From Nitrospirota bacterium (GTDB lineage Bacteria; Nitrospirota; Thermodesulfovibrionia; Thermodesulfovibrionales; JdFR-85): a DNA stretch of 64,000 nucleotides. This document shows positions 42,408 through 59,043 of the stretch, in pieces. The translations under genes and the position numbers were made by a program. Numbering within the stretch: position 1 is the first letter of the stretch; each line of letters opens with the position of its first letter. The notes beneath the pieces were generated by a model. That model saw only the letters and a list, made by a program, of their open reading frames with translations, did not search any database and was not told where the DNA came from. The stretch spans positions 288 to 64,287 of the forward strand of contig WFMM01000008.1 in the NCBI GenBank assembly GCA_015484595.1, read 5' to 3'.

Positions 42408-42441
42408 CGGAGGGCATACTTTTTTCCGAAAGGTAAAAAAA

Positions 42442-42774
42442 ATGGAGACATCCGTTGCTTTTTCACAGAGGTTAAAGGAGACTAAAAAATTGAAGACAAC
42501 CCTCGTTGTTAACGAAACAGTTATACCCCTTAACGAGTTTGTACAGACCTATATTGGTAATGTATTAAGGGCCATGGTCTTGAGCCTCGGTTTTGAGGCA
42601 GAGAGGGTGCATCTCTTTATAGAATCAGGAGATATAAAGATATATGCTGATGATGAACCGGTCCCCCTGAGAAAGGACTTTGTAAAACTCCTTTTAGAAA
42701 GCACCATTAAGGGAGTGCTTTCGCCACTTAAAGGAATCTTCTGGCTTGAGAGAATAACCATAATGACCGAGTAA
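42442..42774 (+). CDS. Hypothetical 110-aa protein (no family recognised)
   Basis: An ORF with plausible codon usage and no TM or signal sequence. Follows the receiver gene after a 34-nt gap. Confidence 0.4.
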   Translation: METSVAFSQRLKETKKLKTTLVVNETVIPLNEFVQTYIGNVLRAMVLSLGFEAERVHLFIESGDIKIYADDEPVPLRKDFVKLLLESTIKGVLSPLKGIFWLERITIMTE

Positions 42775-42948
42775 AAATTTTTATACCGCTATGCATATTT
42801 GTCATAGCGATATATCTATAAAATATTAAGAAAAACCAAAGGATTTTACCGACTCAGGTCGGGAATAAATTTTACTGAAAATGTTAATAATTATGAGAAA
42901 TGAATATATAAATTTAAATAATAGAAATAATATAAATAATATTCATTG

Positions 42949-42979
42949 TTGACAAAGGAATTCTTATTGGTGTATAAAT
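42949..42979 (+). promoter_or_regulatory. Sigma-70-type promoter of the nuo operon (candidate)
   Basis: TTGACA (42949-42954), an 18-nt spacer, then tgTATAAAt (42971-42979). The nuoA ATG (42986) lies 7 nt after the -10 element and no SD is visible. Confidence 0.5.
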
Positions 42980-42985
42980 TAAGCC

Positions 42986-43357
42986 ATGCCTGGTACATAC
43001 TTACCAGAAAGCTATTTACCTATCTTTATTTTTATCATCATCGCCACCCTTTTCGGGCTTGGTGCCCTGCTAATCGGTGAAATAGTCCGTCTCAGAAGAC
43101 CCTATCATGAAAAGCTCATGCCCTATGAATCAGGCATTGACCCTGTTGGTGAGCCAAGGGTAAGGTTTTCTATCAGGTTCTATGTTATTGCAATGTTATT
43201 TGTCGTGTTCGATGTGGAGGCTATATTCCTTTATCCCTGGGCAGTGGTGTTTGATAAAATCGGGCTTTACGCCTTTGTAGAGATGGTAATCTTTATAATA
43301 ATCCTCTTTGTTGGATACATATACGCCTGGAAGAAGGATGCCTTTCAGTGGGAGTAG
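42986..43357 (+). CDS. nuoA: NADH-quinone oxidoreductase subunit A
   Basis: 123 aa, three TM helices. The PYESGIDPVG motif is typical of NuoA/ND3. Confidence 0.92.
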   Translation: MPGTYLPESYLPIFIFIIIATLFGLGALLIGEIVRLRRPYHEKLMPYESGIDPVGEPRVRFSIRFYVIAMLFVVFDVEAIFLYPWAVVFDKIGLYAFVEMVIFIIILFVGYIYAWKKDAFQWE

Positions 43358-43360
43358 GCT

Positions 43361-43888
43361 ATGAGCATGATAGTTGATACAACCACAACGCTGGTTGAGG
43401 TAGAAGAGGGGGTAAAGATAATCCCCGGTGCCAACACCATTATCACCACCCTTGACAAAATAATAAACTGGGGAAGGTACTCATCACTATGGCCTGTCAC
43501 CTTTGGTCTTGCCTGCTGTGCCATTGAGATGATGACCACAGGGTCAAGTCATTATGACCTTGACCGTCTTGGCATAATCTTCCGTGGCTCGCCACGACAG
43601 GCAGACTTTATGATAGTTGCAGGAACGGTTACAAAGAAGATGGCGCCTATAGTAAGGAGGGTTTACGACCAGATGCCCGAGCCCAAGTATGTAATATCCA
43701 TGGGAAGCTGTGCATGCTCGGGTGGGATATTTCGCTCCTACAGCACTGTGCAGGGCTGTGACAGCTTCCTGCCAGTGGATGTCTATGTGCCTGGCTGTCC
43801 GCCAAGGCCTGAGGCACTGATGCACGGGATTGTGAAGCTACAGGAGAAGATCAGGAAGGAGAGGATGCGTTGGAGCCGCTGGAGATAG
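43361..43888 (+). CDS. nuoB: NADH-quinone oxidoreductase subunit B
   Basis: 175 aa. [18 protein letters not shown] and PGCPPRPE are the N2 cluster ligands. Confidence 0.95.
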
Positions 43889-44403
43889 CCCAGAAGATAA
43901 AGGAGAGGTTTCCTGAAGAGGTAAAGGACATAAGAGAATTCAGAGGACAGGTCTCGGTAACAGTAAAGAGGGAGAGGATTGTAGAGATCTGTCGCTGGCT
44001 TCATGACGAGCCAGAGCTTGATTTTGACATGCTAAAAGACCTCTGCGGGGTGGACTACCTCGGTAAAAAGCCCATCCGTTTTGAGGTGGTCTATACCCTT
44101 TACAGCATGAATCACCACCACATGATAAGACTGAAGGCCGAGGTGCCAGAGGAGGACCCTGAGATAGACTCGGTTATAGAAGTGTGGCGTGGTGCTGACT
44201 GGCATGAGCGTGAGTGTTACGACATGTTTGGGATAAAGTTCAGGGGCCATCCAGACCTTAGAAGGATCCTGCTTCCAGAGGACTGGGAGGGACACCCACT
44301 AAGAAAGGACTATCCTGAAAAGGGGCCCGAAAAGGAGTGGAAGGGCTTTCAGGATGTGCTTGATACAGCCAGGAGATTACAGGAGTATGTATGGAAAGGG
44401 TAG
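43870..44403 (+). CDS. nuoC: NADH-quinone oxidoreductase subunit C
   Basis: 177 aa. [36 protein letters not shown]. Confidence 0.93.
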
Positions 44404-45587
44404 AAAAACCCCTTCAGACTAAAGAGATTACCCTTAACATGGGGCCACAGCACCCATCAACCCATGGGGTGCTCAGGCTGGTTTTAGAGCTTGATGGTGA
44501 GACCGTTGTAAAGTGCACCCCCTATGTGGGTTATCTCCACAGGGGTATAGAAAAGCTCTCCGAGGGAATGACCTACATGCAGGCTCTTCCACTTACAGAC
44601 CGTCTTGACTACATCTCATCAATGGCCAACAATGTGGGCTACTGCCTTGCAGTGGAAAGGCTCTTTGGCATAGAGGCACCGGAGAGGGCTAAATTCATAA
44701 GAACCATGGTCTGCGAGATGACCCGTATTTCAAGCCACATCATCTGGCTTGGAACCCATGCCCTTGACCTTGGTGCCATGACGCCCTTTCTGTATTCCTT
44801 CAGGGAAAGGGAGTGGATACTTGACCTCTTTGAAAAGCTCTGTGGTGCAAGGCTTACGGTGAGTTATCCAAGGATAGGGGGCGTAAGAAACGATGTCTCC
44901 CAGGAGTTTCTTGACAGCCTTTATAAGTTTACCGAGGAGTTTCCAAGAAGGATAGAGGAGTACGAGACCCTCATTGACCAGAACCGTATATGGTTAAAAA
45001 GGACAAAGGGCATAGGGGTTATCTCGGCTGAGGAGGCAATAAACTGGGGGCTTACAGGCCCCACATTAAGGGGCTCGGGTGTTAATTACGACATAAGAAA
45101 GAAATTCCCCTACGATGCCTATGATAGGGTTGAGTTTGATGTGCCCCTCGGGAAAAATGGCGATGTCTACGACCGTTACCGTTGCAGGATGGAGGAGCTA
45201 AGGCAATCGACCAGGATAATCAGACAGTGCATAGAAAAACTGCCCGAAGGGCCGATTATGGCACCTGATGCGCCCAAGTTTACCCTTCCACCAAAAGACA
45301 GGGTGCTTGCAGACATGGAATCACTTATTCATCACTTTGTGCTCATAACAAAGGGACCAATGGCCGCCCCTGAAGGTGAGATATATGTGGCAACCGAGGT
45401 GCCAAAGGGTGAGCTTGGTTTTTACATCGTAAGTGACGGCACGGGAAGGCCCTACAGGATGAGGGTGAGGGCTCCAAGTTTTGTGCATGCCTCGGTTCTG
45501 CCGAGGCTATGTGAGGGTGGACTTGTGGCTGATGTGATAGCAAACATCGGAACCATTGACATCGTGCTTGGAGAGTGTGATAGGTGA
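44391..45587 (+). CDS. nuoD: NADH-quinone oxidoreductase subunit D
   Basis: 398 aa. [16 protein letters not shown], and the C-terminus DIVLGECDR. Confidence 0.96.
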
Positions 45588-45590
45588 AAA

Positions 45591-45739
45591 CAGGGGGTAG
45601 GCAGTAGGGAATAGGGAACAGGGTGTAATTAGTGTTGAGTGTTGAATTTTGAGTGTTGAGTTAGTCTTTTTTATTAAACACTAAAAACTATGCACTCAAC
45701 ACTAAAAACTACTCCCTACACGCTACACCCTACACCCTG
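45591..45739. repeat. Repeat family R1, copy 4, inserted between nuoD and nuoE
   Basis: cagggggtaggcagtagggaatagggaacagggtgtaattagtgttgagtgttgaattttgagtgttgagttagtcttttttattaaacactaaaaactatgcactcaacactaaaaactactccctacacgctacaccctacaccctg. Confidence 0.85.
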
Positions 45740-45752
45740 ATAATTAAGGACT

Positions 45753-46208
45753 ATGGCATTTATGGAAGAGATAAAGGAGATACTGAAGAGATACCCTGAC
45801 AGAAGGGGGGCTCTGCTTCCGACCCTGTATATTATGCAGCGAGAGTATGGCTGGCTCAGTCAGGAGGCACTTCAGGCTGCAGCAGATGCACTGAACCTGC
45901 CGCCTGCCACTGTTAAGGGTGTGGCCACCTTTTATGCCATGTACAGACATAAACCAATGGGGCGACATCTGATCCAGCTATGCACCAATGTGGCCTGTAT
46001 GATAATGGGAGCCGAGCGGCTGGTTGACCTTCTAAAGGAGCGTTATGGGCTTGAACCAGGCGGCACAACAGAGGACGGCAGATTCTCACTTGTTATAATG
46101 GAATGCATCGGTGCCTGCGACCGTGCACCTGCCATGCTTGTGGATACAGACTTTCATGCTGACCTGAATGAGCAGAACCTCTTTGAGATTCTGGAGCAAT
46201 ACAAGTAG
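45753..46208 (+). CDS. nuoE: NADH-quinone oxidoreductase subunit E
   Basis: 151 aa. 2Fe-2S ligands in QLCTNVACMIMG and MECIGACDRAPAM. Confidence 0.94.
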   Translation: MAFMEEIKEILKRYPDRRGALLPTLYIMQREYGWLSQEALQAAADALNLPPATVKGVATFYAMYRHKPMGRHLIQLCTNVACMIMGAERLVDLLKERYGLEPGGTTEDGRFSLVIMECIGACDRAPAMLVDTDFHADLNEQNLFEILEQYK

Positions 46209-46213
46209 GAGAT

Positions 46214-47476
46214 ATGGAGATATTTCTTTTAAAAAACATTGATAACCCTGAGTCTCATCGTATCCAGGTCTATCAACAGACAGGCGGATACGAACAGCTT
46301 AAAAAGGCCCTAAGCATGAAGCCTGAGGACATCATACAGGAGGTAAAGAACTCAGGGCTTCGTGGCCGGGGTGGTGCAGGCTTTCCAACAGGTATGAAGT
46401 GGGACTTTGCCTCCCGTGACCCGAAGCTCCCCAAGTATCTTGTATGTAATGCTGACGAAGGTGAGCCTGGCACCTTTAAGGACCGCCCCATACTTGAGAA
46501 AAACCCCCATCTTTTGATTGAGGGGATGGTTATATCAGCCTATGCACTGAAGGCCGAGAGGGGTTATATCTACCTCAGGGGTGAGTATCCCCACGCAAAG
46601 GTGGTGCTTGAGGAGGCCATAAGGGAGGCATACGAAAGTGGCTTTCTTGGACAGGATATCCTTGGCTCGGGTTTCAGCTTTGACCTTTCGGTTCATCAGG
46701 GAGCAGGTGCCTACATCTGCGGTGAAGAGACAGCCCTTATTGACTCTCTTGAGGGCAGAAGGGGACAGCCTCGCATAAAACCGCCCTTCCCCGTAAATGT
46801 GGGTGCCTGGGGTATGCCCACGGTGGTAAACAATGTGGAGACCCTGTCGAACCTCCCGCTCATCATTAAGATAGGTGCCGAGGAGTATAAAAAGATAGGA
46901 AACCCCGAGTGTCCGGGGCCAAAACTCTACTGTGTAAGTGGCATGGTTGAGCGTCCGGGGGTCTATGAGCTGCCAATGGGCACTACTCTTAAAGAGATTA
47001 TTTATGAGCACTGCGGTGGTATAAAGGGTGGTGGTCAGTTGAAGGCTGTCATCCCTGGCGGTATCTCCACACCGGTGCTTACACCTGATAAGATAGATGT
47101 CCAGATGGATTTTGTGAGTCTTCCGAAGGTAGGCAGCATGCTTGGCTCAGGTGCTGTGATGGTATTTGATGAAAGCGTATGTCTCGTAAGGGTATGCTGG
47201 AGGGCAATCAGGTTTTTTGAGCATGAATCCTGTGGCAAATGCACCCCCTGCCGTGAAGGGGTGGGCTGGATGCGGACCGTGCTTGAGAGGATAGAGTCTG
47301 GTTTTGGCAGAAAGGGTGACATAGAACTGCTTCAGGACATTGCCTCAAACATTACTGGTAAGACCTTCTGTCCGCTGGGTGATGGTGCAGCAGGAGTGGT
47401 GCTTAACTTTATAAGGAATTTTCCTGAGGAGTTTGATTATCATATCCAGAACAAAAAGTGTATGGTTGAGGCATAG
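46214..47476 (+). CDS. nuoF: NADH-quinone oxidoreductase subunit F
   Basis: 420 aa. GLRGRGGAGFPTG (FMN site), NADEGEPGTFKDR, and ESCGKCTPCREG (N3 cluster). Confidence 0.96.
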   Translation: MEIFLLKNIDNPESHRIQVYQQTGGYEQLKKALSMKPEDIIQEVKNSGLRGRGGAGFPTGMKWDFASRDPKLPKYLVCNADEGEPGTFKDRPILEKNPHLLIEGMVISAYALKAERGYIYLRGEYPHAKVVLEEAIREAYESGFLGQDILGSGFSFDLSVHQGAGAYICGEETALIDSLEGRRGQPRIKPPFPVNVGAWGMPTVVNNVETLSNLPLIIKIGAEEYKKIGNPECPGPKLYCVSGMVERPGVYELPMGTTLKEIIYEHCGGIKGGGQLKAVIPGGISTPVLTPDKIDVQMDFVSLPKVGSMLGSGAVMVFDESVCLVRVCWRAIRFFEHESCGKCTPCREGVGWMRTVLERIESGFGRKGDIELLQDIASNITGKTFCPLGDGAAGVVLNFIRNFPEEFDYHIQNKKCMVEA

Positions 47477-47481
47477 AGAGG

Positions 47482-50040
47482 ATGATTAAGCTTACCATAG
47501 ACGGCATAGAGGTGGAGCTTGAAAAGCCCATAACCGTGCTTGAGGCAGCACGGAAGGCAGGTATCAAGATACCAACGCTCTGTTACTTTGAGGGGCTTAA
47601 ACCCTTTGGTGGATGCAGGCTATGCGTAGTGGAGGTGGAGAAGCTTCCAAGGCTTCAGACAGCCTGCACCATGATGGCTGCTGATGGAATGGTGGTTAAG
47701 ACAGAGACCGAAAAGATTAAGGCAGCCCGAAGGGCAATGCTTGAATTTCTTTTAATCAATCATCCCCTTGACTGTCCTGTCTGTGACAAGGCAGGAGAGT
47801 GTGAGCTTCAGGATCTGGTTGCCCGTTACGGACCGGATGCAGGCAGGTTCAGGGAGGGTAAAAGGCGACACCCCGAGAGCTTTGACGACCCCATAATCGT
47901 AAGAAACATGGAGCGCTGCGTGCTCTGCACCCGCTGTATCAGGATGTGTGAGGACCTTCAGGGTGCCTATGCAATTACTGTGACAGGAAGGGGAAGTCAC
48001 TCCTTTGTGGAGCCCTTCTCAGGTGGAAGATACGACTGCGAGTACTGCGGTAACTGTCTTACCGTATGTCCTGTTGGTGCAATCATGTCAAGGCTTCACC
48101 GCCACAGCTACCGTCCGTGGTACATACAGAACAATGTAGAGACCGTATGCGGTTACTGTGGTGTGGGCTGCACCATGATTCTTCAAATGAGGGAGGGCCA
48201 GATCGTTCGCACAATTCCAGAGATGGGCCTTGGGCTTAACAACGGACTGCTCTGTGTGAGGGGAAGGTTTGGATACGACTTTGTCCAGTCTGAGGCAAGG
48301 CTAAGGATGCCCATGATTCGTAAGGATGGTGAACTTCGTGAGGTCTCATGGGCTGAGGCACTGGATTATGTGGCAAAGAGACTGAGGGAGATATCTGAAA
48401 AACATGGTCCTCAGGCAGTTGGAGGCATTGGCTCTTCAAGGTGCACCAACGAAGACAACTACATGCTTCAGCGACTGATGAGGTTTACCATCGGGACAAA
48501 TAACATAGACTCTGCTGCAAGGCTCTATTACGCCCCGGCTCAGAGATTTCTTGAAAGGATATTCGGTCAGGGTATTACGGCAAACCTTATCCCTGGTATC
48601 AAAAACTCCGACGGTGTGCTGATTTTTGGTGGAGACCCCACACAGATAAACCCCATACTGGGGCTACAGATAAGGGCTGCTGGTAGAGAGTCTGCCACTG
48701 TGGTGACCTTTGGAAGGGCAAAGGGGCTTGAGAGGTTTGCCCATTATATGCTGCCCGGTGGTCCTTCGGTGATAGATGCAGTTACAGGGATGATTGTCCA
48801 GGAGCTCAGGGATAAGGTGCAGTTAAGTGGAGAGAATAAATGGCTTGAAGGGGAGATTCAAAAGACCAGGGTTTCAGAGGCAGTTGAGGGAGTTTCTGTT
48901 GACGAGGTGGTTGAAAGGCTTAAGGAGATGACCAATCCGGTGATTATCATTGGGCCCGAGGTCTTACAGTCTCAGAACTCTGACAGGACACTGCTACTTA
49001 TCGCCCAGATAGTGTATCTTCTTAACGGAAGGGTCTTTTTGCTTTCTGACAGACCCAACTATCAGGGCTGTATTGATATGGGAGTGCTGCCTGATATGCT
49101 TCCTGGTGGAAGACCCATCGAGATGTTCAAACACAAGGCAGAAGAGGTGATGGGCAAGGAGGTGCCCACAGAAAGGGGGCTTAACCTCTTTGAGATGATA
49201 GAGGCTGCCAGCGAGGGCAGGCTAAAGGCACTGTATGTAATGGGTGAAAACCCTGTATTCAATCTTCCAGACAGAGAAAGGGTTACCCAAGCACTTAAGG
49301 GCCTTGAGTTCCTGGTGGTTCAGGACATCTTTCTTACAGAGACTGCCCTGATGGCTGATGTGGTGCTTCCTGCAAGGGCCTGGTCTGAAAAGACAGGCAC
49401 CTTCACCAACCTTGAACGCAGGATACAGATGGTAAGGGCAGGTGCTGAGAGTGTAGAGGATATGGGTGACTGGAGAATAATTGCCGAGCTGGCTCAAAGG
49501 CTTGGTGAGGAAAAGCAGTTCAGGTCAGTGGAGGATGTTTGGGAGGAGATAACACATGTGTCCCCCCTTCACACTGCCCTTGATTACGAGGAGATATCAA
49601 AGGGTAATGCCCTCTGGCCATATAACGGTGAGCCACTGAGGGGGGTTGAGGAGGAGGTGGAGATTCAGGGGCTTGATGACATCAAACCACTAAAGGTTGA
49701 AGCAGTATTACAGCCTGACCGTCCCCTTTACCACTCAGGAAGCATGAGCCGTCACTCAAAGGCACTAAAGAGCATTGAGGATGCCCCCAAGGTGGTCATC
49801 GGAGAGGCCCTTTCTGAAAAGCTCTCCCTGAAGGATGGAGACAGGGTAAGGGTAACAACTGAGAGGGGGACTCTAAAGGCAACGGTCAGTATAGACAGCA
49901 CCCTCGGTGACGAAAGGGTCTTTTTGTCAAATACCTTTTCAGAGGGTAACTTTTCATCCCTTGCAACCTACGGTGTAAGCAGGCTTGGCTCCATGAGCCT
50001 TGATGCAAATAAAGTCAGAGTGGAGAAAGAAGAGGCATGA
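47482..50040 (+). CDS. nuoG: NADH-quinone oxidoreductase subunit G (long form with a molybdopterin-like domain)
   Basis: 852 aa. N-terminal 2Fe-2S (CYFEGLKPFGGCRLC), HPLDCPVCDKAGEC, CVLCTRCIRMC, then a molybdopterin-oxidoreductase-like fold. Confidence 0.94.
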   Translation: MIKLTIDGIEVELEKPITVLEAARKAGIKIPTLCYFEGLKPFGGCRLCVVEVEKLPRLQTACTMMAADGMVVKTETEKIKAARRAMLEFLLINHPLDCPVCDKAGECELQDLVARYGPDAGRFREGKRRHPESFDDPIIVRNMERCVLCTRCIRMCEDLQGAYAITVTGRGSHSFVEPFSGGRYDCEYCGNCLTVCPVGAIMSRLHRHSYRPWYIQNNVETVCGYCGVGCTMILQMREGQIVRTIPEMGLGLNNGLLCVRGRFGYDFVQSEARLRMPMIRKDGELREVSWAEALDYVAKRLREISEKHGPQAVGGIGSSRCTNEDNYMLQRLMRFTIGTNNIDSAARLYYAPAQRFLERIFGQGITANLIPGIKNSDGVLIFGGDPTQINPILGLQIRAAGRESATVVTFGRAKGLERFAHYMLPGGPSVIDAVTGMIVQELRDKVQLSGENKWLEGEIQKTRVSEAVEGVSVDEVVERLKEMTNPVIIIGPEVLQSQNSDRTLLLIAQIVYLLNGRVFLLSDRPNYQGCIDMGVLPDMLPGGRPIEMFKHKAEEVMGKEVPTERGLNLFEMIEAASEGRLKALYVMGENPVFNLPDRERVTQALKGLEFLVVQDIFLTETALMADVVLPARAWSEKTGTFTNLERRIQMVRAGAESVEDMGDWRIIAELAQRLGEEKQFRSVEDVWEEITHVSPLHTALDYEEISKGNALWPYNGEPLRGVEEEVEIQGLDDIKPLKVEAVLQPDRPLYHSGSMSRHSKALKSIEDAPKVVIGEALSEKLSLKDGDRVRVTTERGTLKATVSIDSTLGDERVFLSNTFSEGNFSSLATYGVSRLGSMSLDANKVRVEKEEA

Positions 50041-51074
50041 GCATACTTGAGGCCATATTTCAGCCAGGCTGGGTGGATACAGCCCTGAAGGTAGGCATAA
50101 TCGTTGTCAAGATACTCGTATTGATTGCAGTGGTTATGTTTCATGTTGCCTATGCCACTTACTTTGAGAGAAAGGTGATAGGAAGGATGCAGGTAAGGAT
50201 GGGGCCAATGGAGGTAGGCCCTCACGGGCTGCTTCAGCCTATTGCAGACATGCTCAAGCTCTTTTTCAAGGAAGACATCATACCGGAGAAGGCAGACAAA
50301 CCGATATTCTACATTGCTCCGATTATATCCCTTGCATCAGCAATGTCTGCCCTTGCGGTGATACCCTTTTATAAGGACTTCATGGTTGCCAATATAAACA
50401 TAGGGCTTTTGTTTGTGCTTGCCATGAGCTCTCTTGCCTCCTACGGTATCGTGCTTTCAGGATGGGCATCCAACTCAAAGTATGCCTTCCTTGGAGGGCT
50501 CAGGTCTTCAGCACAGGTTATAAGTTACGAGATTGCCCTTGGACTCAGTCTCGTTGGTGTGATGATGATGTCTGGTTCTTTGAACCTTAACGAGATAGTG
50601 AAGGCTCAGGCAGCCTATCCAACGGGTTTTTACGCCATACCACAGATACTTGGATTTTTCGTCTTTGTGGTGGCAGCCATTGCAGAGACCAACAGGGCAC
50701 CCTTTGACCTGCCCGAGGCTGAAAGTGAACTGGTGGCAGGGTACTTTGTTGAGTACAGTGGTATGAGGTTTGCCCTGTTTTATGCAGCAGAGTATATTGG
50801 CATGATACTGATGGGCTGTATTGCATCGGCCTGTTATCTTGGTGGCTGGACAGTACCCTGGTATCTGATAAAGATACTTCCCTTCCTGAAGTATGTGCCA
50901 GGGATTGTCTGGTTCGTAGGAAAGGTATATTTCATAGTCTTTTGCTACTACTGGATAAGGGCAACGCTGCCTCGTTATCGTTACGACCAGTTAATGAGCA
51001 TTGGCTGGAAGCTACTTATACCTCTTGCACTGCTTAACATACTGATTACTGGAATACTGAAGGTAATCTTTTAA
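50037..51074 (+). CDS. nuoH: NADH-quinone oxidoreductase subunit H
   Basis: 345 aa, polytopic. ERKVIGRMQVRMGP, LLQPIADMLKLF, and AETNRAPFDLPEAESELVAGY. Confidence 0.96.
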   Translation: MSILEAIFQPGWVDTALKVGIIVVKILVLIAVVMFHVAYATYFERKVIGRMQVRMGPMEVGPHGLLQPIADMLKLFFKEDIIPEKADKPIFYIAPIISLASAMSALAVIPFYKDFMVANINIGLLFVLAMSSLASYGIVLSGWASNSKYAFLGGLRSSAQVISYEIALGLSLVGVMMMSGSLNLNEIVKAQAAYPTGFYAIPQILGFFVFVVAAIAETNRAPFDLPEAESELVAGYFVEYSGMRFALFYAAEYIGMILMGCIASACYLGGWTVPWYLIKILPFLKYVPGIVWFVGKVYFIVFCYYWIRATLPRYRYDQLMSIGWKLLIPLALLNILITGILKVIF

Positions 51075-51086
51075 AGGACAGAGGAG

Positions 51087-51626
51087 ATGACAGTACAGGA
51101 ACTGGTAAAAAAGGTGTTTTTTGTGGAGATCCTGAAGGGCCTTGCCTTAACCCTTAGCAGGCTCTTTACAAAGCCAGTGACAAGGAGGTATCCAAAGGAA
51201 AAAAGGCCTGCAGCACTTGGCTTCAGGGGGCTACATGCCCTTGTAAGGAATCCTGCCACGGGTGAGGCAAAGTGTGTGGGTTGCGGCCTGTGTGCTGCAA
51301 TCTGTCCGTCAAGATGTATTTACATATACACCAAAGAGGGGCCTGACCACAAAAAGGTGGTAGAGCGTTACGAGATAGAGGTCTTGAGGTGTGTTTACTG
51401 TGCCTTCTGCGTTGAGGCATGCCCCTTTGGTGCAGTGGTTTTAACACCCCATTATGAGTACTCCGATTACTCAAGGGATAACCTCTACATGACAAAGGAA
51501 AAGCTGCTTCAGAACTGGGACAAATACATGGGTGAGGAAGGCTATAACTACTTTGATAAATTCTGGAATCCCAAGGCTGACCACTTCAGGACGCCAAAGG
51601 AACAACCAAAGTGGAGGAAATCATAA
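51087..51626 (+). CDS. nuoI: NADH-quinone oxidoreductase subunit I
   Basis: 179 aa. Two 4Fe-4S motifs, CVGCGLCAAICP and CVYCAFCVEACP. Confidence 0.95.
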   Translation: MTVQELVKKVFFVEILKGLALTLSRLFTKPVTRRYPKEKRPAALGFRGLHALVRNPATGEAKCVGCGLCAAICPSRCIYIYTKEGPDHKKVVERYEIEVLRCVYCAFCVEACPFGAVVLTPHYEYSDYSRDNLYMTKEKLLQNWDKYMGEEGYNYFDKFWNPKADHFRTPKEQPKWRKS

Positions 51627-51627
51627 G

Positions 51628-52137
51628 GTGGTAGAGGCATTCTTTATATACTTTGCTCTGATGGTGGTATTTTGTTCGGTTATGGTGGTTTCAAGGAAAA
51701 ACCCGGTGCACAGTGTGCTCTGGATGCTGGTGATGTTTTTCCATGTGGCAGGGCTTTATCTGATGCTTAATGCCGAGTTTCTTGCTGCCACGCAGATAAT
51801 AGTCTATGCAGGGGCAATACTGGTGCTATTTCTATTTGTCATCATGCTTCTTAACCTCAAAGAGGAGATTGCCACAGAGCACTCTGTAGGAGGTTGGCCT
51901 GGTGGGCTTGCCCTTGCGGTGAGTTTTCTTCTCTTTGCACTGCTTGCCTTTACTGGATTTACTGTAAAGGCAAGCGGCAAGTGGAGCATACAGGAGGTTT
52001 CAAGGCTTACACACACAAAGGCCCTTGGGAAGGTGCTTTATACAGAGTATCTTTTTCCCTTTGAGGTGGCATCTGTAATTCTGCTTGTTGCCATTGTGGG
52101 TGCAGTGGTGCTTGCAAAAAAGAAACTCAAGTCCTGA
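51628..52137 (+). CDS. nuoJ: NADH-quinone oxidoreductase subunit J
   Basis: The track ORF 51532-52137 is trimmed to GTG 51628, which is in frame 1 nt after the nuoI stop with GGAGGAAA about 9 nt upstream. Five TM helices. Contains QIIVYAGAILVLFLFVIMLL. Confidence 0.85.
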   Translation: MVEAFFIYFALMVVFCSVMVVSRKNPVHSVLWMLVMFFHVAGLYLMLNAEFLAATQIIVYAGAILVLFLFVIMLLNLKEEIATEHSVGGWPGGLALAVSFLLFALLAFTGFTVKASGKWSIQEVSRLTHTKALGKVLYTEYLFPFEVASVILLVAIVGAVVLAKKKLKS

Positions 52138-52153
52138 AGGAGGCTTTTAAGGG

Positions 52154-52456
52154 ATGGTTCCACTAAACTGGTACATGTGGCTTGGTGCAGTGGTTTTTTC
52201 AGTGGGAATGTTTGGCTTTCTGACAAGAAGAAATGTAATCATAATGTTTCTTTCCATTGAGTTAATGCTTAACGGCGTGAACATATCACTTGTGGCGCTG
52301 AGTCACTACATGCAGGACCTGAGGGGACAGGTGCTTACGCTTTTCATAATCGCCGTGGCTGCAGCAGAGGCTGCCATCGGGCTTGCCATAGTGATTGCCA
52401 TGTTCAGAAATCGTCAGACCGTGCATGTTGATGAAATAAAGGAGATGAAGGGATAG
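52154..52456 (+). CDS. nuoK: NADH-quinone oxidoreductase subunit K
   Basis: 100 aa, three TM helices. LSIELMLNGVN and AAAEAAIGLAIV. Confidence 0.95.
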   Translation: MVPLNWYMWLGAVVFSVGMFGFLTRRNVIIMFLSIELMLNGVNISLVALSHYMQDLRGQVLTLFIIAVAAAEAAIGLAIVIAMFRNRQTVHVDEIKEMKG

Positions 52457-52460
52457 GGTT

Positions 52461-54386
52461 ATGAAATATTATCTGCTGATACCCTTTTTGCCTCTTGCAG
52501 GCTTTTTGTTAAACATACTGCTTGGAAGGAGGCTCTTCCGCTCACAGGCTCACTGGCCCTCCACGCTTGCGGTGTTTGGCTCCCTGGTGGTGGCAGTGAT
52601 GGTGCTTATGGATGTGTTACATGGGAAAACCCTTAATCATGACCTCTACAGGTGGATAATATCCGATAAGTTCCAGGTCTCTGTTGGTTTTCTCATTGAC
52701 CAACTTACGGCCGTGATGCTTATAGTGGTCACATCGGTGAGCTTTCTTGTGCATGTCTATTCCATTGGCTACATGCACGACGACCCAGGGTATTACAGGT
52801 TTTTTGCCTACCTGAGTCTCTTTACCTTTTCCATGCTCATGCTCGTGATGGCTAACAACTTCCTTCAGCTTTACTTTGGCTGGGAGGCAGTGGGGCTCTG
52901 TTCCTATCTGCTCATAGGGTTCTGGTACGAAAAGAAGTCTGCCTCTGATGCAGGTAAAAAGGCATTTATCGTAAACCGCTTTGGTGATTTCGGGTTTGGC
53001 CTTGGCGTGATTATGATATTCCTCACCCTTGGCACCCTTCATTACATACCGGTCTTTGATAAGATTAACACCCTGACAGGACAGACCATTAACATCCTTG
53101 GTCTTCATGTAAATCTTGTAACCCTCATAGCCCTGCTTCTTTTCTGTGGTGCAGTGGGTAAGTCAGCCCAGATACCACTTCATGTCTGGCTTCCAGATGC
53201 AATGGAAGGCCCAACCCCTGTCAGTGCCCTGATACACGCTGCAACCATGGTCACGGCAGGTGTGTTCATGGTTGCCCGTTGTAACCCCATATTCAACCTC
53301 TCTCATACGGCAATGAATGTGGTGGCAGTGGTCGGTGGAGTTACTGCGCTTTTTGCTGCAACCATTGCACTTGTGCAGAACGACATAAAGAGGGTGATTG
53401 CCTACTCTACAATCAGTCAGCTTGGATACATGTTTTTAGCCTGCGGTGTGGGTGCCTACGGTGCAGGCATATTCCATCTTTACACCCACGCCTACTTCAA
53501 GGCACTACTGTTTCTCTGTGCTGGCTCTGTGATGCATGCCATGGCTGGCGAGCTTGACATGCAGAAGATGGGTGGGCTTAAGAAGTACATGCCTGTTACA
53601 TACTGGACAATGCTGATTGCCTCATTAAGTATTTCAGGCATTCCAGGGCTTGCAGGCTTTTTCAGCAAGGATGAGATCCTCTTCAGGGCCTATGCCTCTG
53701 GTGGGGTTGGCAGGTTTGTCTGGGTTCTGGGCACAGCAGCAGCTATTTTGACTGCCTTTTACTCCTTCAGGCTCATCTTCGTTACCTTCCACGGTGAGTT
53801 CAGGGGGACCGAGGAACAGAGGCATCACCTTCATGAATCCCCAAAGGTGATGACCGTGCCCCTGGTGCTTCTATGCATCGGTGCAGTTGCTGCCGGATGG
53901 GTTGGGGTTCCGCCGCTTCTTGGTGGCTCTGAGCATTTTGCCCATTTTCTTGAGCCAGTGGTGGGGCTTCCCCATGCTAAGGAGGTAAGCCACGCTGAGG
54001 AGTGGATGACCATGGGCATATCGGTGGCAGTGGCGCTGGCTGGCATACTGATAGCAGCAGTATTTTATCTTAAAAACCCTGCCATTCCAAGGCGACTTGC
54101 TGAGAGGTTTCCCTTCCTTTACAGGCTCCTCTGGAACAAATACTATGTGGATGAGCTTTATGACTATATAGTGGTAAGGCCAGCCCTGGGCATTGCAAAC
54201 AATATAATAGTGAAGTTTACTGACGGTGCAATAATAGAGGGTATAGTAAACGGTGTGCCAGCATTTATTGGCTGGCTTGGTGCACAGATGCGTAAGGTTC
54301 AGGACGGTGTGGTGGAGCACTACGCATCCATTATGGCTGTAGGAATCTTTGTGCTTTTGGCAATAGGAATGATATTTTTGATATAG
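52461..54386 (+). CDS. nuoL: NADH-quinone oxidoreductase subunit L
   Basis: 641 aa. Antiporter-like core (GWEAVGLCSYLLIGFW, WLPDAMEGPTPVSALIHAATMV) and a C-terminal lateral helix with a final TM. Confidence 0.96.
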   Translation: MKYYLLIPFLPLAGFLLNILLGRRLFRSQAHWPSTLAVFGSLVVAVMVLMDVLHGKTLNHDLYRWIISDKFQVSVGFLIDQLTAVMLIVVTSVSFLVHVYSIGYMHDDPGYYRFFAYLSLFTFSMLMLVMANNFLQLYFGWEAVGLCSYLLIGFWYEKKSASDAGKKAFIVNRFGDFGFGLGVIMIFLTLGTLHYIPVFDKINTLTGQTINILGLHVNLVTLIALLLFCGAVGKSAQIPLHVWLPDAMEGPTPVSALIHAATMVTAGVFMVARCNPIFNLSHTAMNVVAVVGGVTALFAATIALVQNDIKRVIAYSTISQLGYMFLACGVGAYGAGIFHLYTHAYFKALLFLCAGSVMHAMAGELDMQKMGGLKKYMPVTYWTMLIASLSISGIPGLAGFFSKDEILFRAYASGGVGRFVWVLGTAAAILTAFYSFRLIFVTFHGEFRGTEEQRHHLHESPKVMTVPLVLLCIGAVAAGWVGVPPLLGGSEHFAHFLEPVVGLPHAKEVSHAEEWMTMGISVAVALAGILIAAVFYLKNPAIPRRLAERFPFLYRLLWNKYYVDELYDYIVVRPALGIANNIIVKFTDGAIIEGIVNGVPAFIGWLGAQMRKVQDGVVEHYASIMAVGIFVLLAIGMIFLI

Positions 54387-54392
54387 ATTATT

Positions 54393-54620
54393 ATGGTTGA
54401 AATTATAAAAAGAGATAGAGAGTTTGAAAAAACACTATCAGAGATGTCGATGGAGCAACTGTTGGAGCTTGAAGAAATTATTATGAGGGTGATGAAGAGA
54501 AAACTTAAAAGCAGGAAGATTGATAACTGGAGAAATGATTTTTTAAAAATTTCAACCTGGTCGCACCTCAAAGGTGATAAAGAAGTAAAGGTTGATAAAT
54601 GGGAAATAGAGAAGTTTTAG
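54393..54620 (+). CDS. Putative antitoxin partner of the PIN toxin (family not recognised)
   Basis: 75 aa. Charged helical N-terminus, C-terminal WSHLKGDKEVKVDKWEIEKF. Overlaps the PIN gene by 22 nt. Visibly AT-rich compared with the flanking nuo genes. Confidence 0.55.
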   Translation: MVEIIKRDREFEKTLSEMSMEQLLELEEIIMRVMKRKLKSRKIDNWRNDFLKISTWSHLKGDKEVKVDKWEIEKF

Positions 54621-54988
54621 TTGATACAACTGTCATGATTGAATTTCTTAGAAAGAGGAAAAAAGAAAGAAGTAATTTGTGGAAATTGAAGGAGCAAGAA
54701 ATAAATTGTTTTGCTTCAACAATTACTGTTTTTGAGCTGTACGCTGGTGCAATTACAAAGAGGCATCTTGAGGATTTAAAAAGATTATTTAAATGGGTAG
54801 AGATAGTTTCTTTTTCAGGAGAGATTGCTCAGAGAGCTGCACAAATTTACAGAGATTTAAAGTCAAAAAATCAGATGATAGAGTTTAGAGATATATTTAT
54901 AGGTGCAACTGCACTTGAATTAAAGGTGCCGTTGGTGACTTTAAATAAACAGCATTTTAAAAGAATCAAGGGATTGGAATTGTTTTAA
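54599..54988 (+). CDS. vapC: PIN-domain ribonuclease toxin (VapC family)
   Basis: 129 aa. Conserved acidic residues in the usual positions (LVDTTV, TVFELYAG, FRDIFIGATA) and C-terminal LVTLNKQHF. Confidence 0.85.
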   Translation: MGNREVLVDTTVMIEFLRKRKKERSNLWKLKEQEINCFASTITVFELYAGAITKRHLEDLKRLFKWVEIVSFSGEIAQRAAQIYRDLKSKNQMIEFRDIFIGATALELKVPLVTLNKQHFKRIKGLELF

Positions 54989-55010
54989 AAAATTTTATGC
55001 AGGAGTGGAG

Positions 55011-56531
55011 ATGGAGATAGGATATCCCATACTTTCAACCGTAGTTTTTATGCCCATTGTTGGTGGGCTTCTGCTTATGCTCTTTAGCCGAAAGCAGGAG
55101 ACCCTTATAAAGTTTGTTGCCCTTGCAGTAAGCGTGATAACCTTTGTGCTTTCACTGCCGCTTTTTACAAACTTTGACAAGACCACTCACCAGATGCAGT
55201 TTGTTGAAAGGGCAGACTGGATACCCCAGTGGGGTGTGCAGTATTATCTTGGCGTTGACGGAATTAGCGTGCTATTCATACTTTTGAGCACCCTGATTAC
55301 CATCCTCTGTGTGCTTATCTCCTGGAACTCCATAACCCAGAAGGTAAAGGAGTTTTATATTGCACTGTTACTGATTGAGGGTGCCATGATCGGGGTTTTC
55401 TGCTCACTTGACCTGTTTCTGTTTTACATCTTCTGGGAGGCAATGCTCATTCCCATGTACCTGATAATCGGCGTATGGGGTGGCCCAAGAAGGGTATATG
55501 CAGCCATTAAGTTCTTCCTCTATACGCTGATTGGTAGTGTATTGATGCTCGTTGCAATAGTGGTGCTTTACTTCAAGGGGGGGACCTTCAATATCCTGGA
55601 GCTTTCAAAACTGAGCCTTCCGTACAAACTGCAGCTTATGCTTTTCTGGGCGTTCTGTGCAGCCTTTGCCGTAAAGGTGCCCATGTTTCCGGTGCACACC
55701 TGGCTTCCAGACGCCCACACCGAGGCACCAACAGCAGGCAGTGTAATCCTTGCTGCAATACTTATCAAGATGGGTGCTTACGGCTTTCTGAGGTTTTCAC
55801 TTCCCATGTTTCCTGAGGCTGCAAAGGCAATGACACCATACATGATAGCCCTTTCTGTGATAGCAATTATATATGGCGGTATCGTCTGCCTTGCACAGAC
55901 TGACCTTAAGAGGCTTATTGCATACTCATCGGTTAGTCACATGGGGTTCGTTACCCTTGGCATCTTTGCCCTTAACGCACAGGGACTTGAGGGCGGAATT
56001 CTACAGATGATAAACCACGGTGTGGTAACCGGGGCTCTGTTTCTCTGTGTTGGAATAGTTTACGACCGCACCCATTCACGCCAGATAGCTGACTATGGAG
56101 GGCTGGCAACGGTGATGCCTGTTTATGCAGGGTTTTTCATGCTCTTTACCCTCGCAGCAATAGGTCTTCCAGGGCTTAACGGATTTATCGGAGAGTTCCT
56201 GATAATACTTGGTGGTTTCAAGGCAAAGAAGCTTGCCGGTGTGTTTGCTGCCACGGGGATCATCATAGGTGCAGCCTACATGCTCTGGCTTTACCAGAGG
56301 GTCTTCTTCATGGGTGTAAATGATAAGATAAAGAACCTTGAGCCTATGAGTTTCAGAGAGTTTTTAACCCTTGCTACACTTGCAGTGTTTGTGCTCTGGA
56401 TAGGGATTTATCCTAATACATTTTTAAGCTTCATGCATGTAAGTGTGCAGCATCTTCTTGACAGGGTAAATTACGGTGCCGGTGATTCAATGGTTGCTGT
56501 AAAGACCATCTTAGGAGGACCTATTCCATGA
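55011..56531 (+). CDS. nuoM: NADH-quinone oxidoreductase subunit M
   Basis: The track start GTG 55005 is moved to ATG 55011, which has AGGAG 5 nt upstream. Contains FWEAMLIPMYLIIGVWGG and HTWLPDAHTEAPTAGSVILAAILIKMG. Confidence 0.95.
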   Translation: MEIGYPILSTVVFMPIVGGLLLMLFSRKQETLIKFVALAVSVITFVLSLPLFTNFDKTTHQMQFVERADWIPQWGVQYYLGVDGISVLFILLSTLITILCVLISWNSITQKVKEFYIALLLIEGAMIGVFCSLDLFLFYIFWEAMLIPMYLIIGVWGGPRRVYAAIKFFLYTLIGSVLMLVAIVVLYFKGGTFNILELSKLSLPYKLQLMLFWAFCAAFAVKVPMFPVHTWLPDAHTEAPTAGSVILAAILIKMGAYGFLRFSLPMFPEAAKAMTPYMIALSVIAIIYGGIVCLAQTDLKRLIAYSSVSHMGFVTLGIFALNAQGLEGGILQMINHGVVTGALFLCVGIVYDRTHSRQIADYGGLATVMPVYAGFFMLFTLAAIGLPGLNGFIGEFLIILGGFKAKKLAGVFAATGIIIGAAYMLWLYQRVFFMGVNDKIKNLEPMSFREFLTLATLAVFVLWIGIYPNTFLSFMHVSVQHLLDRVNYGAGDSMVAVKTILGGPIP

Positions 56532-57943
56532 ACATGCCAGACTTACAGCCTTTAATGCCTGAGATTGTGTTTTTGGGGCTTGCCCTTTTTGTATTACTTG
56601 CAGAGCTTTTTATCAAGAGCAAAGAGACCATTGGGCTTATGGTCATCGTATCTGTGGCTGCCACTGCCTACATGATTCCTCAGAGCTTTGGGGTGACCTT
56701 TTCAGGCATGTTCATCTCTGACGGTTACAGCAGCTTTTTTAAGTTTATCTTTCTGCTGAACCTGATACTTACGATCCTTATCTCAATCCAATACATCCAG
56801 ATTGAGAGGGCCGAGTTTGGAGAATACTACACGGTGCTTATGTTTTCCACCCTTGGCATGATGATAATGGCATCAGCAGGTGACCTGATAGTGCTTTACC
56901 TCGGGCTTGAGCTGATGGCCCTTTCCACATACATCCTTGCAGGGTTTATCCGTCACGATGCCCGCTCCACAGAGTCGGCACTTAAGTATTTCCTGCTTGG
57001 TGCATTCTCTTCGGCTATCCTTCTTTACGGGATCATGCTTCTTTACGGACTCACTGGCACAACGGATATAATGAAACTTTCAAGCCTTCTCATGAAAAAT
57101 GGGATGAGACTTCAGAGCATATTTGCCATTGTGATGGTGATGGTTGCCTTTGGTTTTAAGATTGCCCTCGTTCCCTTTCACATGTGGGCACCTGATGTTT
57201 ACGAGGGTGCTCCAACATCTATCACTGCCTTTATGTCTGTTGGGCCAAAGGCAGCAGGCTTTGCAGTAATTGGCAGGGTGTTTCTTACGGGCCTTGAGGG
57301 CTTCAGCGCAGACTGGAGGCTTCTCCTTGTGGTTTTAAGTATTGCCACCATGGCAGTGGGTAACATAATAGCCATACAGCAGCACAACCTCAAAAGGATG
57401 CTTGCCTATTCCTCCATAGCCCATGCAGGTTATGCAGTGCTTGGTGTTATTGCTGGAAACACTGAGGGGCTTTCAGCAACCATGAACTATCTGCTCATTT
57501 ATGCCTTCATGAACATTGGTGCCTTTTCAGTTCTTGTGCTTTTAAGAAATGAACAGGAACGCATCGAGACCCTTGAGCAGATAAAGGGGCTTGCAAGAAA
57601 TCATCCCTTTGCATCAGCCCTTATGCTTATATTCATGTTTTCCCTAACAGGAATTCCACCCACTGCAGGGTTTGTTGGTAAGTTCTTCCTTTTCAGGGCA
57701 CTTGTTTACTCAGGCTATACATGGCTTGCTGTGGTGGCAGTAGTATTTTCTGCCATATCTGCCTACTTTTACCTCAGGGTGGTAATGTATATGTACATGT
57801 ATGAGCCTGAGGAGGGTGTAACCCAGGACATTTCAACGGCAGCCCCTCTTGGGCTTGCCCTTTTGATAACATCCCTGATGGTAATAGCCATAGGCATATA
57901 CCCCGAGCCCTTTGTAAATTTTGCCCGCCTGGTGGTCGGGTAG
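56528..57943 (+). CDS. nuoN: NADH-quinone oxidoreductase subunit N
   Basis: 471 aa. LGLELMALSTYILAG and HMWAPDVYEGAPTSITAFMSVGPK. ATGA overlap with nuoM. Confidence 0.95.
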   Translation: MNMPDLQPLMPEIVFLGLALFVLLAELFIKSKETIGLMVIVSVAATAYMIPQSFGVTFSGMFISDGYSSFFKFIFLLNLILTILISIQYIQIERAEFGEYYTVLMFSTLGMMIMASAGDLIVLYLGLELMALSTYILAGFIRHDARSTESALKYFLLGAFSSAILLYGIMLLYGLTGTTDIMKLSSLLMKNGMRLQSIFAIVMVMVAFGFKIALVPFHMWAPDVYEGAPTSITAFMSVGPKAAGFAVIGRVFLTGLEGFSADWRLLLVVLSIATMAVGNIIAIQQHNLKRMLAYSSIAHAGYAVLGVIAGNTEGLSATMNYLLIYAFMNIGAFSVLVLLRNEQERIETLEQIKGLARNHPFASALMLIFMFSLTGIPPTAGFVGKFFLFRALVYSGYTWLAVVAVVFSAISAYFYLRVVMYMYMYEPEEGVTQDISTAAPLGLALLITSLMVIAIGIYPEPFVNFARLVVG

Positions 57944-58074: not shown

Positions 58075-58104
58075 TTGACAATACAAAAAATCAGGTGATA
58101 GAAT
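58075..58104 (+). promoter_or_regulatory. Sigma-70-type promoter with an extended -10
   Basis: TTGACA (58075-58080), an 18-nt spacer, then TGaTAGAAT (58096-58104). About 90 nt upstream of the 58196 start codon. Confidence 0.6.
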
Positions 58105-58195: not shown

Positions 58196-58984
58196 ATGAA
58201 GGTATTGTATGAGTTTATCCCCAAAAAGAATTTTCTTGAACTGGCAGCAGAGATCAAGGACTTGCTTGATGGATGGAACATAACAGACAGTGCAAGCGGA
58301 ATCCCTGCCCCATCTGCAGCTGCAGTGGCATGCACCCTGAAGACCAGGTATCCTGATAAGATAGCCCTTCCAATGCTCATCACCAACTACAAGGGGCCAG
58401 TTGAGATTGCAGCAGCAGCCAAGGCCTGTGAGGCAGTTGGGATAGACGGTATGGTCCCGGATCCAGGAGATGCCCCGAGGTACGGCTATGCCATCAAGAC
58501 TAGTAAAGACGGAAGCTGTGAGCTCCTTACTGACGAGGAGCAGTTTGAGAATTTCCGCCGCTCCACAGGACCTGCTGAAAATGTGAGGGACTTCCTGAGA
58601 GAGGTTGCCAAGGTCAAAGACCTGAAGCTTGGCTGTCTCGTTACCGCCCGAAGACCTGCATCAGATGCCATTGCCCGCATAAAGGAGCCCTGGGACTTTA
58701 CCTTCTTCCTCAGACTTGACGAGGAGTCACTTCCAAAGTTAAAGGAGGTTGCCGCTGAATGTAAAAACCTGGGTAAGGCAATCTATCCCTATTTTGTGGT
58801 GGAAACACCAAAGAACAAAAAGATACTCGAAAGGATCGGCTGGACCTCCACTGCAACCATGGACAATGCCGTTGAGTTTGCAAAGAAGCTCGAAGGCGTG
58901 GTGGACGGCATCATAGCCACCTGCCTCGGAGACATAGAGGGAGACAAGGAACTGCTCAAGGTGCTTCAGGAGGTAAGGGGTTAA
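58196..58984 (+). CDS. MetF-like (methylenetetrahydrofolate reductase family) TIM-barrel protein, divergent
   Basis: 262 aa. LYEFIPKK .. ITDSASGIPAPSAAAVACTLK .. GIDGMVPDPGDAP follows the MTHFR layout (FEFFPPK .. SVTyGAGGs .. GI.n.LaLrGDpP). Weak, pattern-level evidence only. Confidence 0.4.
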   Translation: MKVLYEFIPKKNFLELAAEIKDLLDGWNITDSASGIPAPSAAAVACTLKTRYPDKIALPMLITNYKGPVEIAAAAKACEAVGIDGMVPDPGDAPRYGYAIKTSKDGSCELLTDEEQFENFRRSTGPAENVRDFLREVAKVKDLKLGCLVTARRPASDAIARIKEPWDFTFFLRLDEESLPKLKEVAAECKNLGKAIYPYFVVETPKNKKILERIGWTSTATMDNAVEFAKKLEGVVDGIIATCLGDIEGDKELLKVLQEVRG

Positions 58985-59006
58985 TCTAAGATAGTTGAAC
59001 GACTTT

Positions 59007-59041
59007 AAAAGGGGCAGGCACCTCTGTGCCTGCCCCTTTTT
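59007..59041. terminator. Bidirectional intrinsic terminator
   Basis: aaaa-GGGGCAGGCAC-ctct-GTGCCTGCCCC-ttttt. Perfect 11-bp GC-rich stem flanked by an A-run and a T-run, between convergent genes ending at 58984 and 59044. Confidence 0.85.
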
Positions 59042-59043
59042 CA

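Follow-up and report, generated by a model that had tools for sequence, protein, structure and literature searches.

A toxin-antitoxin (TA) gene pair lies inside the complex I operon nuoA-N of a Nitrospirota bacterium (GenBank contig WFMM01000008.1), in the gap between nuoL and nuoM. The stretch of this contig that was analysed, 64,000 nt in full, is referred to below as the window. The first gene of the pair (open reading frame A, ORF-A) encodes a charged, antitoxin-like protein of 75 aa and the second (ORF-B) a PIN-domain protein of 129 aa. The sequence of the PIN protein, its predicted VapC fold and the co-conserved, overlapping upstream gene together make the pair a VapBC-like module. In the reading that we favour, and to which we assign a probability of roughly 0.62, it is a functional type II module of the VapBC type that originated as a gene cassette, became fixed in a core operon and rides on the nuo transcript. 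The locus comprises the following features.

42986..57943, plus strand: nuoA-N operon, from Pfam assignments and the ORF map; presumed transcription unit of the pair.
52461..54386, plus strand: nuoL, 641 aa; ORF, with Pfam Proton_antipo_N/M/C on the identical product; upstream neighbour of the pair.
54387..54392, plus strand: left spacer ATTATT, equal to the last 6 nt of the leader GGAGAATTATT-ATG found in cassette homologues.
54393..54620, plus strand: antitoxin-like gene (ORF-A), 75 aa; ORF.
54587..54591, plus strand: Shine-Dalgarno-like motif AAAGG inside the antitoxin gene, 7 nt before the PIN start.
54599..54988, plus strand: VapC-type PIN toxin gene (ORF-B), 129 aa; ORF with a PF01850 match.
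54989..55010, plus strand: right spacer with the nuoM Shine-Dalgarno sequence CAGGAG (55000-55005).
55011..56531, plus strand: nuoM, 506 aa; ORF and gene call, Pfam Proton_antipo_M; downstream neighbour of the pair.

An earlier note on this DNA, written from the letters alone, had nuoL ending at 54386, nuoM starting at 55011 and, between them, an AT-rich gap of 624 bp holding two overlapping genes on the same strand; the ORF map, the sequence and the GC content bear out each of these points. The nuoL stop codon (TAG) precedes the antitoxin start by 6 nt, and nuoL is as long as in relatives whose nuoL-nuoM site is empty. nuoM begins with the ATG at 55011, the start also chosen by gene callers in identical contigs. 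Both genes of the pair are on the nuo strand, and they overlap by 22 nt (54599-54620). The GC content of positions 54387-54988 is 0.317, the lowest among all 602-bp stretches of the 64-kb window (mean 0.466, standard deviation 0.036; z = -4.1). Furthermore, the GC content at third codon positions is 0.27-0.39 in the pair versus 0.51-0.54 in nuoK-N, and thus the low GC is not merely an amino-acid effect.

Across 75 related genomes in which the slot is without the pair, the median nuoL-nuoM spacer is 8 nt long and the 95th percentile lies near 150 nt, which makes a gap of 624 bp with two genes exceptional. Occupancy of the slot in the closest sequences found is as follows (percentages are identities to the window).

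Window: NuoL 100%, antitoxin 100%, PIN 100%; slot occupied.
Loci L085 and L086: NuoL 97%, antitoxin 91%, PIN 95%; slot occupied.
Locus L087: NuoL 94%, antitoxin 75%, PIN 75%; slot occupied.
Loci L180, L182, L184 and L186, the nearest outgroups found: NuoL 80-85%; slot empty, with spacers of 26-68 nt.

None of 80 GTDB representatives with NuoL at most 71% identical encodes the antitoxin or the PIN protein. The comparison of nuoL-nuoM junctions among relatives, which the earlier note had proposed, restricts occupancy of the slot to a clade with NuoL identity of at least 94%; in the relatives at 80-85% and in the 75 more distant genomes, nuoL and nuoM abut. The nuoM Shine-Dalgarno sequence CAGGAG is common to occupied and empty sites (L180, L182), so the insertion landed between the nuoL stop codon and CAGGAG. 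That the pair was inserted, as the note had proposed, is upheld by the empty slot in the nearest outgroups and in the 75 further relatives, and by the foreign composition. As for the contrary case set out in the same note, a pair conserved throughout the lineage with native composition, conservation was found within a narrow lineage only and the composition is not native.

The insertion is not recent, being common to three lineages separated by a synonymous divergence (dS) of about 0.4-1.2. In each of the three occupied lineages the two reading frames are uninterrupted; among these lineages, the dS of the pair is comparable to that of the flanking genes (up to about 1.2) and the ratio of nonsynonymous to synonymous divergence (dN/dS) is 0.06-0.14 for the antitoxin, 0.10-0.13 for the toxin and 0.01-0.07 for the nuo genes. 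For the PIN gene, dS between the window and L087 is 1.24 (flanking genes, 0.95-1.2), and between the window and L085 it is 0.19 (flanking nuo genes, 0.44-0.63). Thus, the occupancy pattern combined with the dS and dN/dS values indicates a single ancestral acquisition followed by vertical descent, with purifying selection on both genes and a composition that is still unameliorated. Chromosomal TA modules are usually described as short-lived passengers of variable regions that are quickly lost (PMC13617665).

The assignment of ORF-B as a VapC-type PIN toxin, also made in the earlier note, was confirmed by a match to the Pfam PIN family PF01850 (E = 5.5e-15; 56.5 bits against a cut-off of 23.6) and by the predicted fold. 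The AlphaFold model, built with an alignment of 25 homologues, has a mean predicted local distance difference test score (pLDDT) of 96; VapC structures came first in a Foldseek search of the PDB (Shigella 3TND, Salmonella 6IFC and Rickettsia 3ZVK; template modelling (TM) scores of 0.85-0.87), and the top 40 matches are VapC, FitB or PIN toxins, with TM scores of up to 0.87. The accompanying claim that the conserved acidic residues are in place holds for three positions and fails for the fourth. E46 and D98 are invariant in 110 of 110 PIN homologues, and D9 is present in 109 of the 110; the fourth acidic position is occupied by His119, which aligns with the Glu of the KEF motif in 3ZVK. Position 119 is His in 98 of the 110 family members and Asp in 9, and His119 sits in the clade-specific motif TLNxxHF; judging from these alignments, a His at the fourth acidic site is a signature of the PIN clade to which ORF-B belongs. 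NCBIfam VapC models match ORF-B at approximately 1e-16, under their curated cut-offs (NF047959, 60.8 bits against 80; the tRNA(fMet)-specific NF047863, 60.6 bits against 140). As these equivalog cut-offs are missed, the tRNA(fMet) target specificity cannot be transferred to ORF-B. In a plasmid search, the antitoxin yielded no match and the PIN protein only a distant one from Thermococcus.

The 75-aa protein, in which 45% of the residues are charged, has no match in Pfam, NCBIfam, PDB, PADLOC or PHROG. The impression recorded in the earlier note that it does not resemble AbrB, ribbon-helix-helix (RHH) or Phd antitoxins was therefore correct, and no recognised DNA-binding domain (AbrB, RHH, Phd/YefM or helix-turn-helix) was found in it with Pfam, NCBIfam or PDB. 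A word-seeded search with the antitoxin found only 3 proteins, so that a full hidden Markov model (HMM) search of 1.84 billion representatives was needed; it returned only 17 clusters for the family. The core of the family alignment reads LSxLSIEELLELEE-I, followed by a basic linker and by DW+xDFLxISxWxHL...VKVDxWxIExF. In the AlphaFold model (pLDDT 70), helices span residues 9-17, 20-40 and 46-54 and the tail is of low confidence; Foldseek found nothing with this model (best E = 9). Scattered Pfam matches across family members (BAG, H-NS_N and others) were dismissed as chance, as was a weak PDB profile match of the antitoxin to ribosomal protein L23 (E = 0.018 or worse).

Residues ~9-40 of the antitoxin correspond to a family-specific helical hairpin, and residues ~44-75 to a W/F-rich module common to the partners of related PIN toxins. 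PIN homologues that are 58-69% identical always have an upstream gene for a protein of 73-75 aa with the same 22-nt overlap; this partner is kept in at least 8 unrelated contexts, and the overlap occurs in every ORF-A family locus. PIN homologues that are 40-50% identical have partners with different N-termini, namely, a DUF2281-like helix (matching PF10047 weakly, E = 1.5e-3, under the gathering score), a beta-rich AbrB/AF2212-like module or a 'MEKLTINIP' module, and these distant partners retain a similar C-terminal segment, VS-W...W-x-x-E-F/W. In HMM and profile-profile comparisons with the other partners, the alignment of the 75-aa protein is confined to the C-terminal half; all 19 of the 19 ORF-A family members examined lack a match to PF10047 (DUF2281) at E values of up to 1. 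We read these patterns as those of a modular antitoxin, in which a putative toxin-binding tail common to the PIN clade is combined with interchangeable N-terminal modules, the one in the 75-aa protein being, according to the model, an un-named helical module.

Outside the nuo operon, the same pair sits behind unrelated genes (Ham1-like, SLT_2, HepT and AAA_35). At most of these loci, imperfect inverted repeats built like integron attC sites flank the pair; they show RYYYAAC and GTTRRRY cores, a variable loop and an inner helix in which one base is bulged. An alignment of eight of these sites yields 21 consensus pairs, of which 10 show compensatory changes. A covariance model built from the eight sites (R1) finds sites beyond its training set (L091, 2963-3047; L094, 26-85; L092, 1-44) and scores the attC sites at L088, L091, L093, L094, L100 and L101 at 42-87 bits. 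At L091, the pair (A-PIN) belongs to an array of the form ORF-attC-[MNT-HepT]-attC-[A-PIN]-attC, with at least 3 attC sites. The cassettes are AT-rich whatever the host (GC content of 0.27-0.36 in hosts of 0.29-0.50). In the attC-bearing homologues, the PIN stop codon falls within an ATCTAAC core site; the PIN gene of the window is 5 codons shorter than theirs and ends right at the junction. TA cassettes in chromosomal integrons and in CALIN arrays (clusters of attC sites lacking integrases), as well as insertion at secondary sites, are documented (PMC8876359, PMC4889954).

The nuo copy is trimmed. R1 gave no match in the 64 kb of the window (at most 7.4 bits with filters off), and there is no GTTAGAT or GTTRRRY boundary at the nuo copy. 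Of the usual leader GGAGAATTATT-ATG, nothing but the final 6 nt (ATTATT) is retained, without the GGAG Shine-Dalgarno sequence of the cassette leaders (L093, L094 and L102 were compared), and the spacer between the nuoL stop codon and the antitoxin ATG measures 6, 10 and 21 nt across the three occupied lineages. Neither intI nor a cassette array is present near the pair, its neighbourhood in the window consisting of nuoA-N, tpiA and secG, and intI is absent from the Pfam calls of every cassette locus examined. Direct and inverted flanking repeats were sought as traces of a mobile element, and only short AT-rich chance repeats were found; L085 does not share the 17-nt inverted repeat at 54395-54411 / 54541-54557. 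Insertion of the nuo copy at a secondary site by IntI is unsupported, as both a TT-AGAT boundary and an attC site are absent. The pair may have arrived either through an integrase, with later deletions, or through illegitimate recombination.

A second attC-less copy outside the nuo operon occurs at L096-L099 (3777-4500), where it follows an SLT_2 lytic transglycosylase gene of the same orientation at a distance of 24 nt and is itself followed by a convergently oriented obg gene; its cassette has a GC content of 0.355 against 0.497 in the flanks, and it is as 'naked' as the nuo copy. At L093 (2098-6166), an A-PIN cassette with its attC site (4400-4470) is located between near-identical AAA_35 ATPase genes of 527 and 528 aa, and a gene for a 23S_rRNA_IVP protein follows. 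At L091 (2963-4409; Desulfothermus okinawensis JCM 13304, BAAIEW010000026.1), the MNT-HepT cassette is directly upstream of the A-PIN cassette, and the contig ends inside the attC site that follows the latter.

No terminator-like sites were found between 54386 and 55011, and promoter-like matches are at background (9 versus 7.4 +/- 2.8 expected over 5 kb). Because the antitoxin ATG is preceded by a spacer of only 6-21 nt, any promoter or operator would have to lie within the nuoL coding sequence. The AAAGG block and the 22-nt overlap are invariant in the three occupied lineages, consistent with translational coupling of the two genes. Most cassette relatives have leaders of merely 28-31 nt, so that the family as a whole seems to depend on transcription from upstream, as would fit an antitoxin without a recognisable DNA-binding domain. 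One leader type (L088 and L100) contains TTGAAA-16-TAAAAT. In L088, a perfect 16-bp palindrome, TTGAAAAATTTTTCAA (3741-3756), overlaps the -35-like hexamer and may serve as an operator; L100 carries a degenerate version of it, and a search of the window gave 0 matches. Upstream of nuoA, an AT-rich, promoter-like spacer (42775-42985) is likely to be the nuo promoter region, with 8 promoter-like matches in 42400-43400 versus 3.7 +/- 1.6 expected. Positions 42442-42985 are the second most AT-rich part of the window and contain, downstream of a response-regulator gene, a 110-aa ORF without a Pfam match (42442-42774), followed by the 210-nt AT-rich spacer and nuoA.

On these grounds, the pair is probably functional, and we propose the following scenario. 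The ancestor would have been an integron-type (attC) mobile cassette, small and AT-rich, of which a trimmed copy with only the two reading frames became fixed at the nuoL-nuoM junction in the last ancestor shared by a narrow clade of Nitrospirota and was inherited vertically thereafter under purifying selection. Having no leader, promoter or terminator of its own, the pair would ride on nuo transcription as part of the polycistronic message. The start of the antitoxin gene lies 6-21 nt past the end of nuoL and lacks a good Shine-Dalgarno sequence, so ribosomes that terminate on nuoL probably go on to translate it. The 22-nt overlap, which is conserved, and the AAAGG within the antitoxin gene would couple translation of the PIN gene to that of the antitoxin; nuoM would retain its original CAGGAG. 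The PIN protein is expected to be a Mg2+-dependent RNase, the target of which, by analogy with the nearest structural relatives, is probably tRNA and possibly initiator tRNA. The W/F-rich C-terminal segment of the antitoxin would wrap around the toxin and block its active site, and the N-terminal helical hairpin probably dimerises. Most likely, the module has no dedicated role in complex I; it may persist by being addictive or mildly useful, and its clean deletion from so tight a slot would be rare.

Several points weigh against this scenario. The cassette origin is read from homologues that are 58-69% identical, the nuo copy itself bearing no attC or GTTRRRY trace. The NCBIfam VapC equivalog scores are under the cut-offs (60.8 versus 80 bits), and with His119 in place of the fourth acidic residue, the activity of the PIN protein could differ from that of characterised VapCs. 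The antitoxin model is of moderate confidence (pLDDT 70) and has no structural match. Between the window and L085, the dS of the PIN gene (0.19) is under that of the flanking genes, which could result from codon constraint in an AT-rich gene or from a recombination event. Finally, toxicity, neutralisation, translational coupling and the RNA target are inferred, as are the co-transcription with nuo and the essential nature of the operon, both put forward in the earlier note.

The most probable of the rival explanations concerns the role of the pair in its host operon. A domesticated module could be wired to complex I, such that nuo shutdown causes the labile antitoxin to decay and the RNase to slow translation, or the PIN protein could process the nuo polycistron near nuoL/nuoM and thereby set subunit ratios. 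Domestication would account for the retention of one slot over a dS of about 1 under purifying selection, as opposed to the quick loss usual for chromosomal TA modules (PMC13617665), and is compatible with a pair that lacks a leader, promoter and terminator and with an antitoxin that has no recognisable DNA-binding domain. However, the same family is found elsewhere behind unrelated genes (Ham1, SLT_2, HepT, AAA_35), and most cassette copies are likewise promoterless, with leaders of 28-31 nt, so that dependence on read-through is not specific to nuo. Moreover, the outgroups run complex I without the pair, and a specific link to nuo RNA was not found. We consider domestication unlikely on this balance. 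Its stricter form, in which the pair was captured as a respiration regulator, with nuo transcription and translation alone setting the toxin-antitoxin balance and either the loss of nuo expression freeing the RNase or the RNase processing nuo mRNA at the L/M boundary, appears slightly more doubtful again; if true, a TA module would have been co-opted as an inbuilt checkpoint on an operon for energy conservation.

Type II TA modules, including those with PIN toxins, can act in phage defence, and the pair could be an abortive-infection module that merely happens to reside in the nuo operon. Defence genes are among the cargo of integron cassette pools, and purifying selection would be compatible with such a function, but PADLOC models match neither protein, a single uncharacterised PHROG family matches the PIN protein only, and the neighbourhood is a core respiratory operon without defence genes nearby, which makes an anti-phage role distinctly improbable. 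The missing leader and attC site, the five PIN codons lost relative to cassette homologues and the repeat insertions that relatives tolerate in other nuo spacers might instead suggest a decaying, functionless remnant surviving in a slot tolerant of extra DNA. Against such decay, the ORFs are intact in three lineages with dN/dS of about 0.1, all invariant residues of the family are kept, and neither the 22-nt overlap nor the internal Shine-Dalgarno block varies; there is, in our view, very little chance that the pair is a remnant. A metagenome assembly chimera comes to mind because all sources are metagenome-assembled genomes or metagenome contigs. However, the identical pair occupies the same slot in four contigs of independent assemblies, the same junctions recur in independent ENA, NCBI, JGI and Logan assemblies, and diverged orthologous copies are present at the same site, so that a chimera can be practically dismissed. 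A functional VapBC-type module of cassette origin that rides on the nuo transcript is thus the explanation that we retain.

Other variation was observed in and around the nuo operons of this group. Within nuoA-N of the window, the only other sizeable spacer is the 165-nt nuoD-nuoE gap (45588-45752). Between nuoN and tpiA (58196-60261), the window carries a 262-aa ORF without a Pfam match and, on the minus strand, a gene for a 405-aa multihaem cytochrome c; in L085 and L087, tpiA and secG directly follow nuoN, pointing to a second lineage-specific insertion or deletion adjoining the operon. A promoter-like site matching 11 of 12 positions (TTGACA-18-TAGAAT with TG) is present at 58075-58104. 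In L184 (also L185; bacterium BMS3Bbin06), the NuoL of which is 82% identical, the nuoH-nuoI spacer measures approximately 700 nt (1541-2244) and the nuoK-nuoL spacer approximately 317 nt (3684-4000), and both consist of repeats, in tandem and in inverted orientation, of a palindromic unit, ...GTCATTCCGGCATGTCCGGAATCGTTC..., which looks like a repetitive extragenic palindromic (REP) or miniature inverted-repeat transposable element (MITE)-like repeat. The repeat-filled spacers indicate that nuo spacers in this group evidently tolerate insertions.

The kind of system described here is well known, and knowledge of the VapBC mechanism is unchanged by the finding; what is new is the unannotated antitoxin family, the PIN clade with a His in place of an acidic residue, the link to cassettes and the long retention in a core operon. 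The pair has been kept intact over substantial divergence inside a highly conserved operon of energy metabolism, without transcription signals of its own, and offers a natural test case for two questions, namely, whether read-through and translational coupling alone suffice to maintain a TA module and what such a module does to the host operon. The analysis also defines a small antitoxin family with a common C-terminal, putatively PIN-binding motif that occurs on several N-terminal modules, and the link of this family to the integron cassette pool suggests a route by which cassette genes may enter core operons. In a literature search, no description of a nuo operon harbouring a TA module came up; a Helicobacter pylori paper contains both terms separately.

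Among known systems, the VapC proteins of Shigella flexneri pMYSH6000 and Salmonella LT2 are tRNA(fMet)-specific endonucleases. The enteric VapBC modules (3TND, 6IFC) and the window pair have in common the PIN/VapC fold (Foldseek TM 0.85, E of about 1e-8), the catalytic D, E and D, and a small antitoxin gene immediately upstream of, and overlapping, the toxin gene. However, the proteins are only about 20% identical, the enteric E119 is a His in the window PIN protein, and in the enteric modules, unlike the window pair, VapB carries a DNA-binding domain of the AbrB type and its promoter is autoregulated. Rickettsia felis VapBC2 (3ZVK) is the sole sequence match among structures that depositors named as toxins (E = 6e-4, residues 11-126); in the same PDB search with the PIN protein, a better value (1.1e-05) went to 1Y82, an unnamed protein from Pyrococcus furiosus. 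The R. felis toxin and the window PIN protein align over the C-terminal motif LVTxNxxxFKRI, whereas the KEF of R. felis corresponds to QHF in the window, and the R. felis antitoxin binds promoter DNA, of which there is no sign in the window antitoxin.

The pairs of PIN and DUF2281 (COG5559) proteins, such as Synechocystis sll0205/ssl0385 (PMC4963859), likewise combine a PIN toxin with a short, mostly helical partner without a classical DNA-binding fold. Partners of the sister-clade PIN proteins (40-46% identical) match PF10047 weakly (E = 1.5e-3) and share the C-terminal VS-W...W motif with the 75-aa protein; the profile-profile match of the 75-aa protein is, however, confined to its C-terminal half, with a probability of 37%. 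With the TA cassettes of integrons and CALIN arrays (PMC8876359, PMC4889954), the pair is connected through the 58-69% identical homologues that have attC-like bounds. The reviewed TA cassettes carry their own promoters (PMC8876359), whereas most leaders in the A-PIN family are just 28-31 nt long, and the window copy differs further from integron cassettes in having no attC site, GTTRRRY boundary or intI context and in residing in a core operon.

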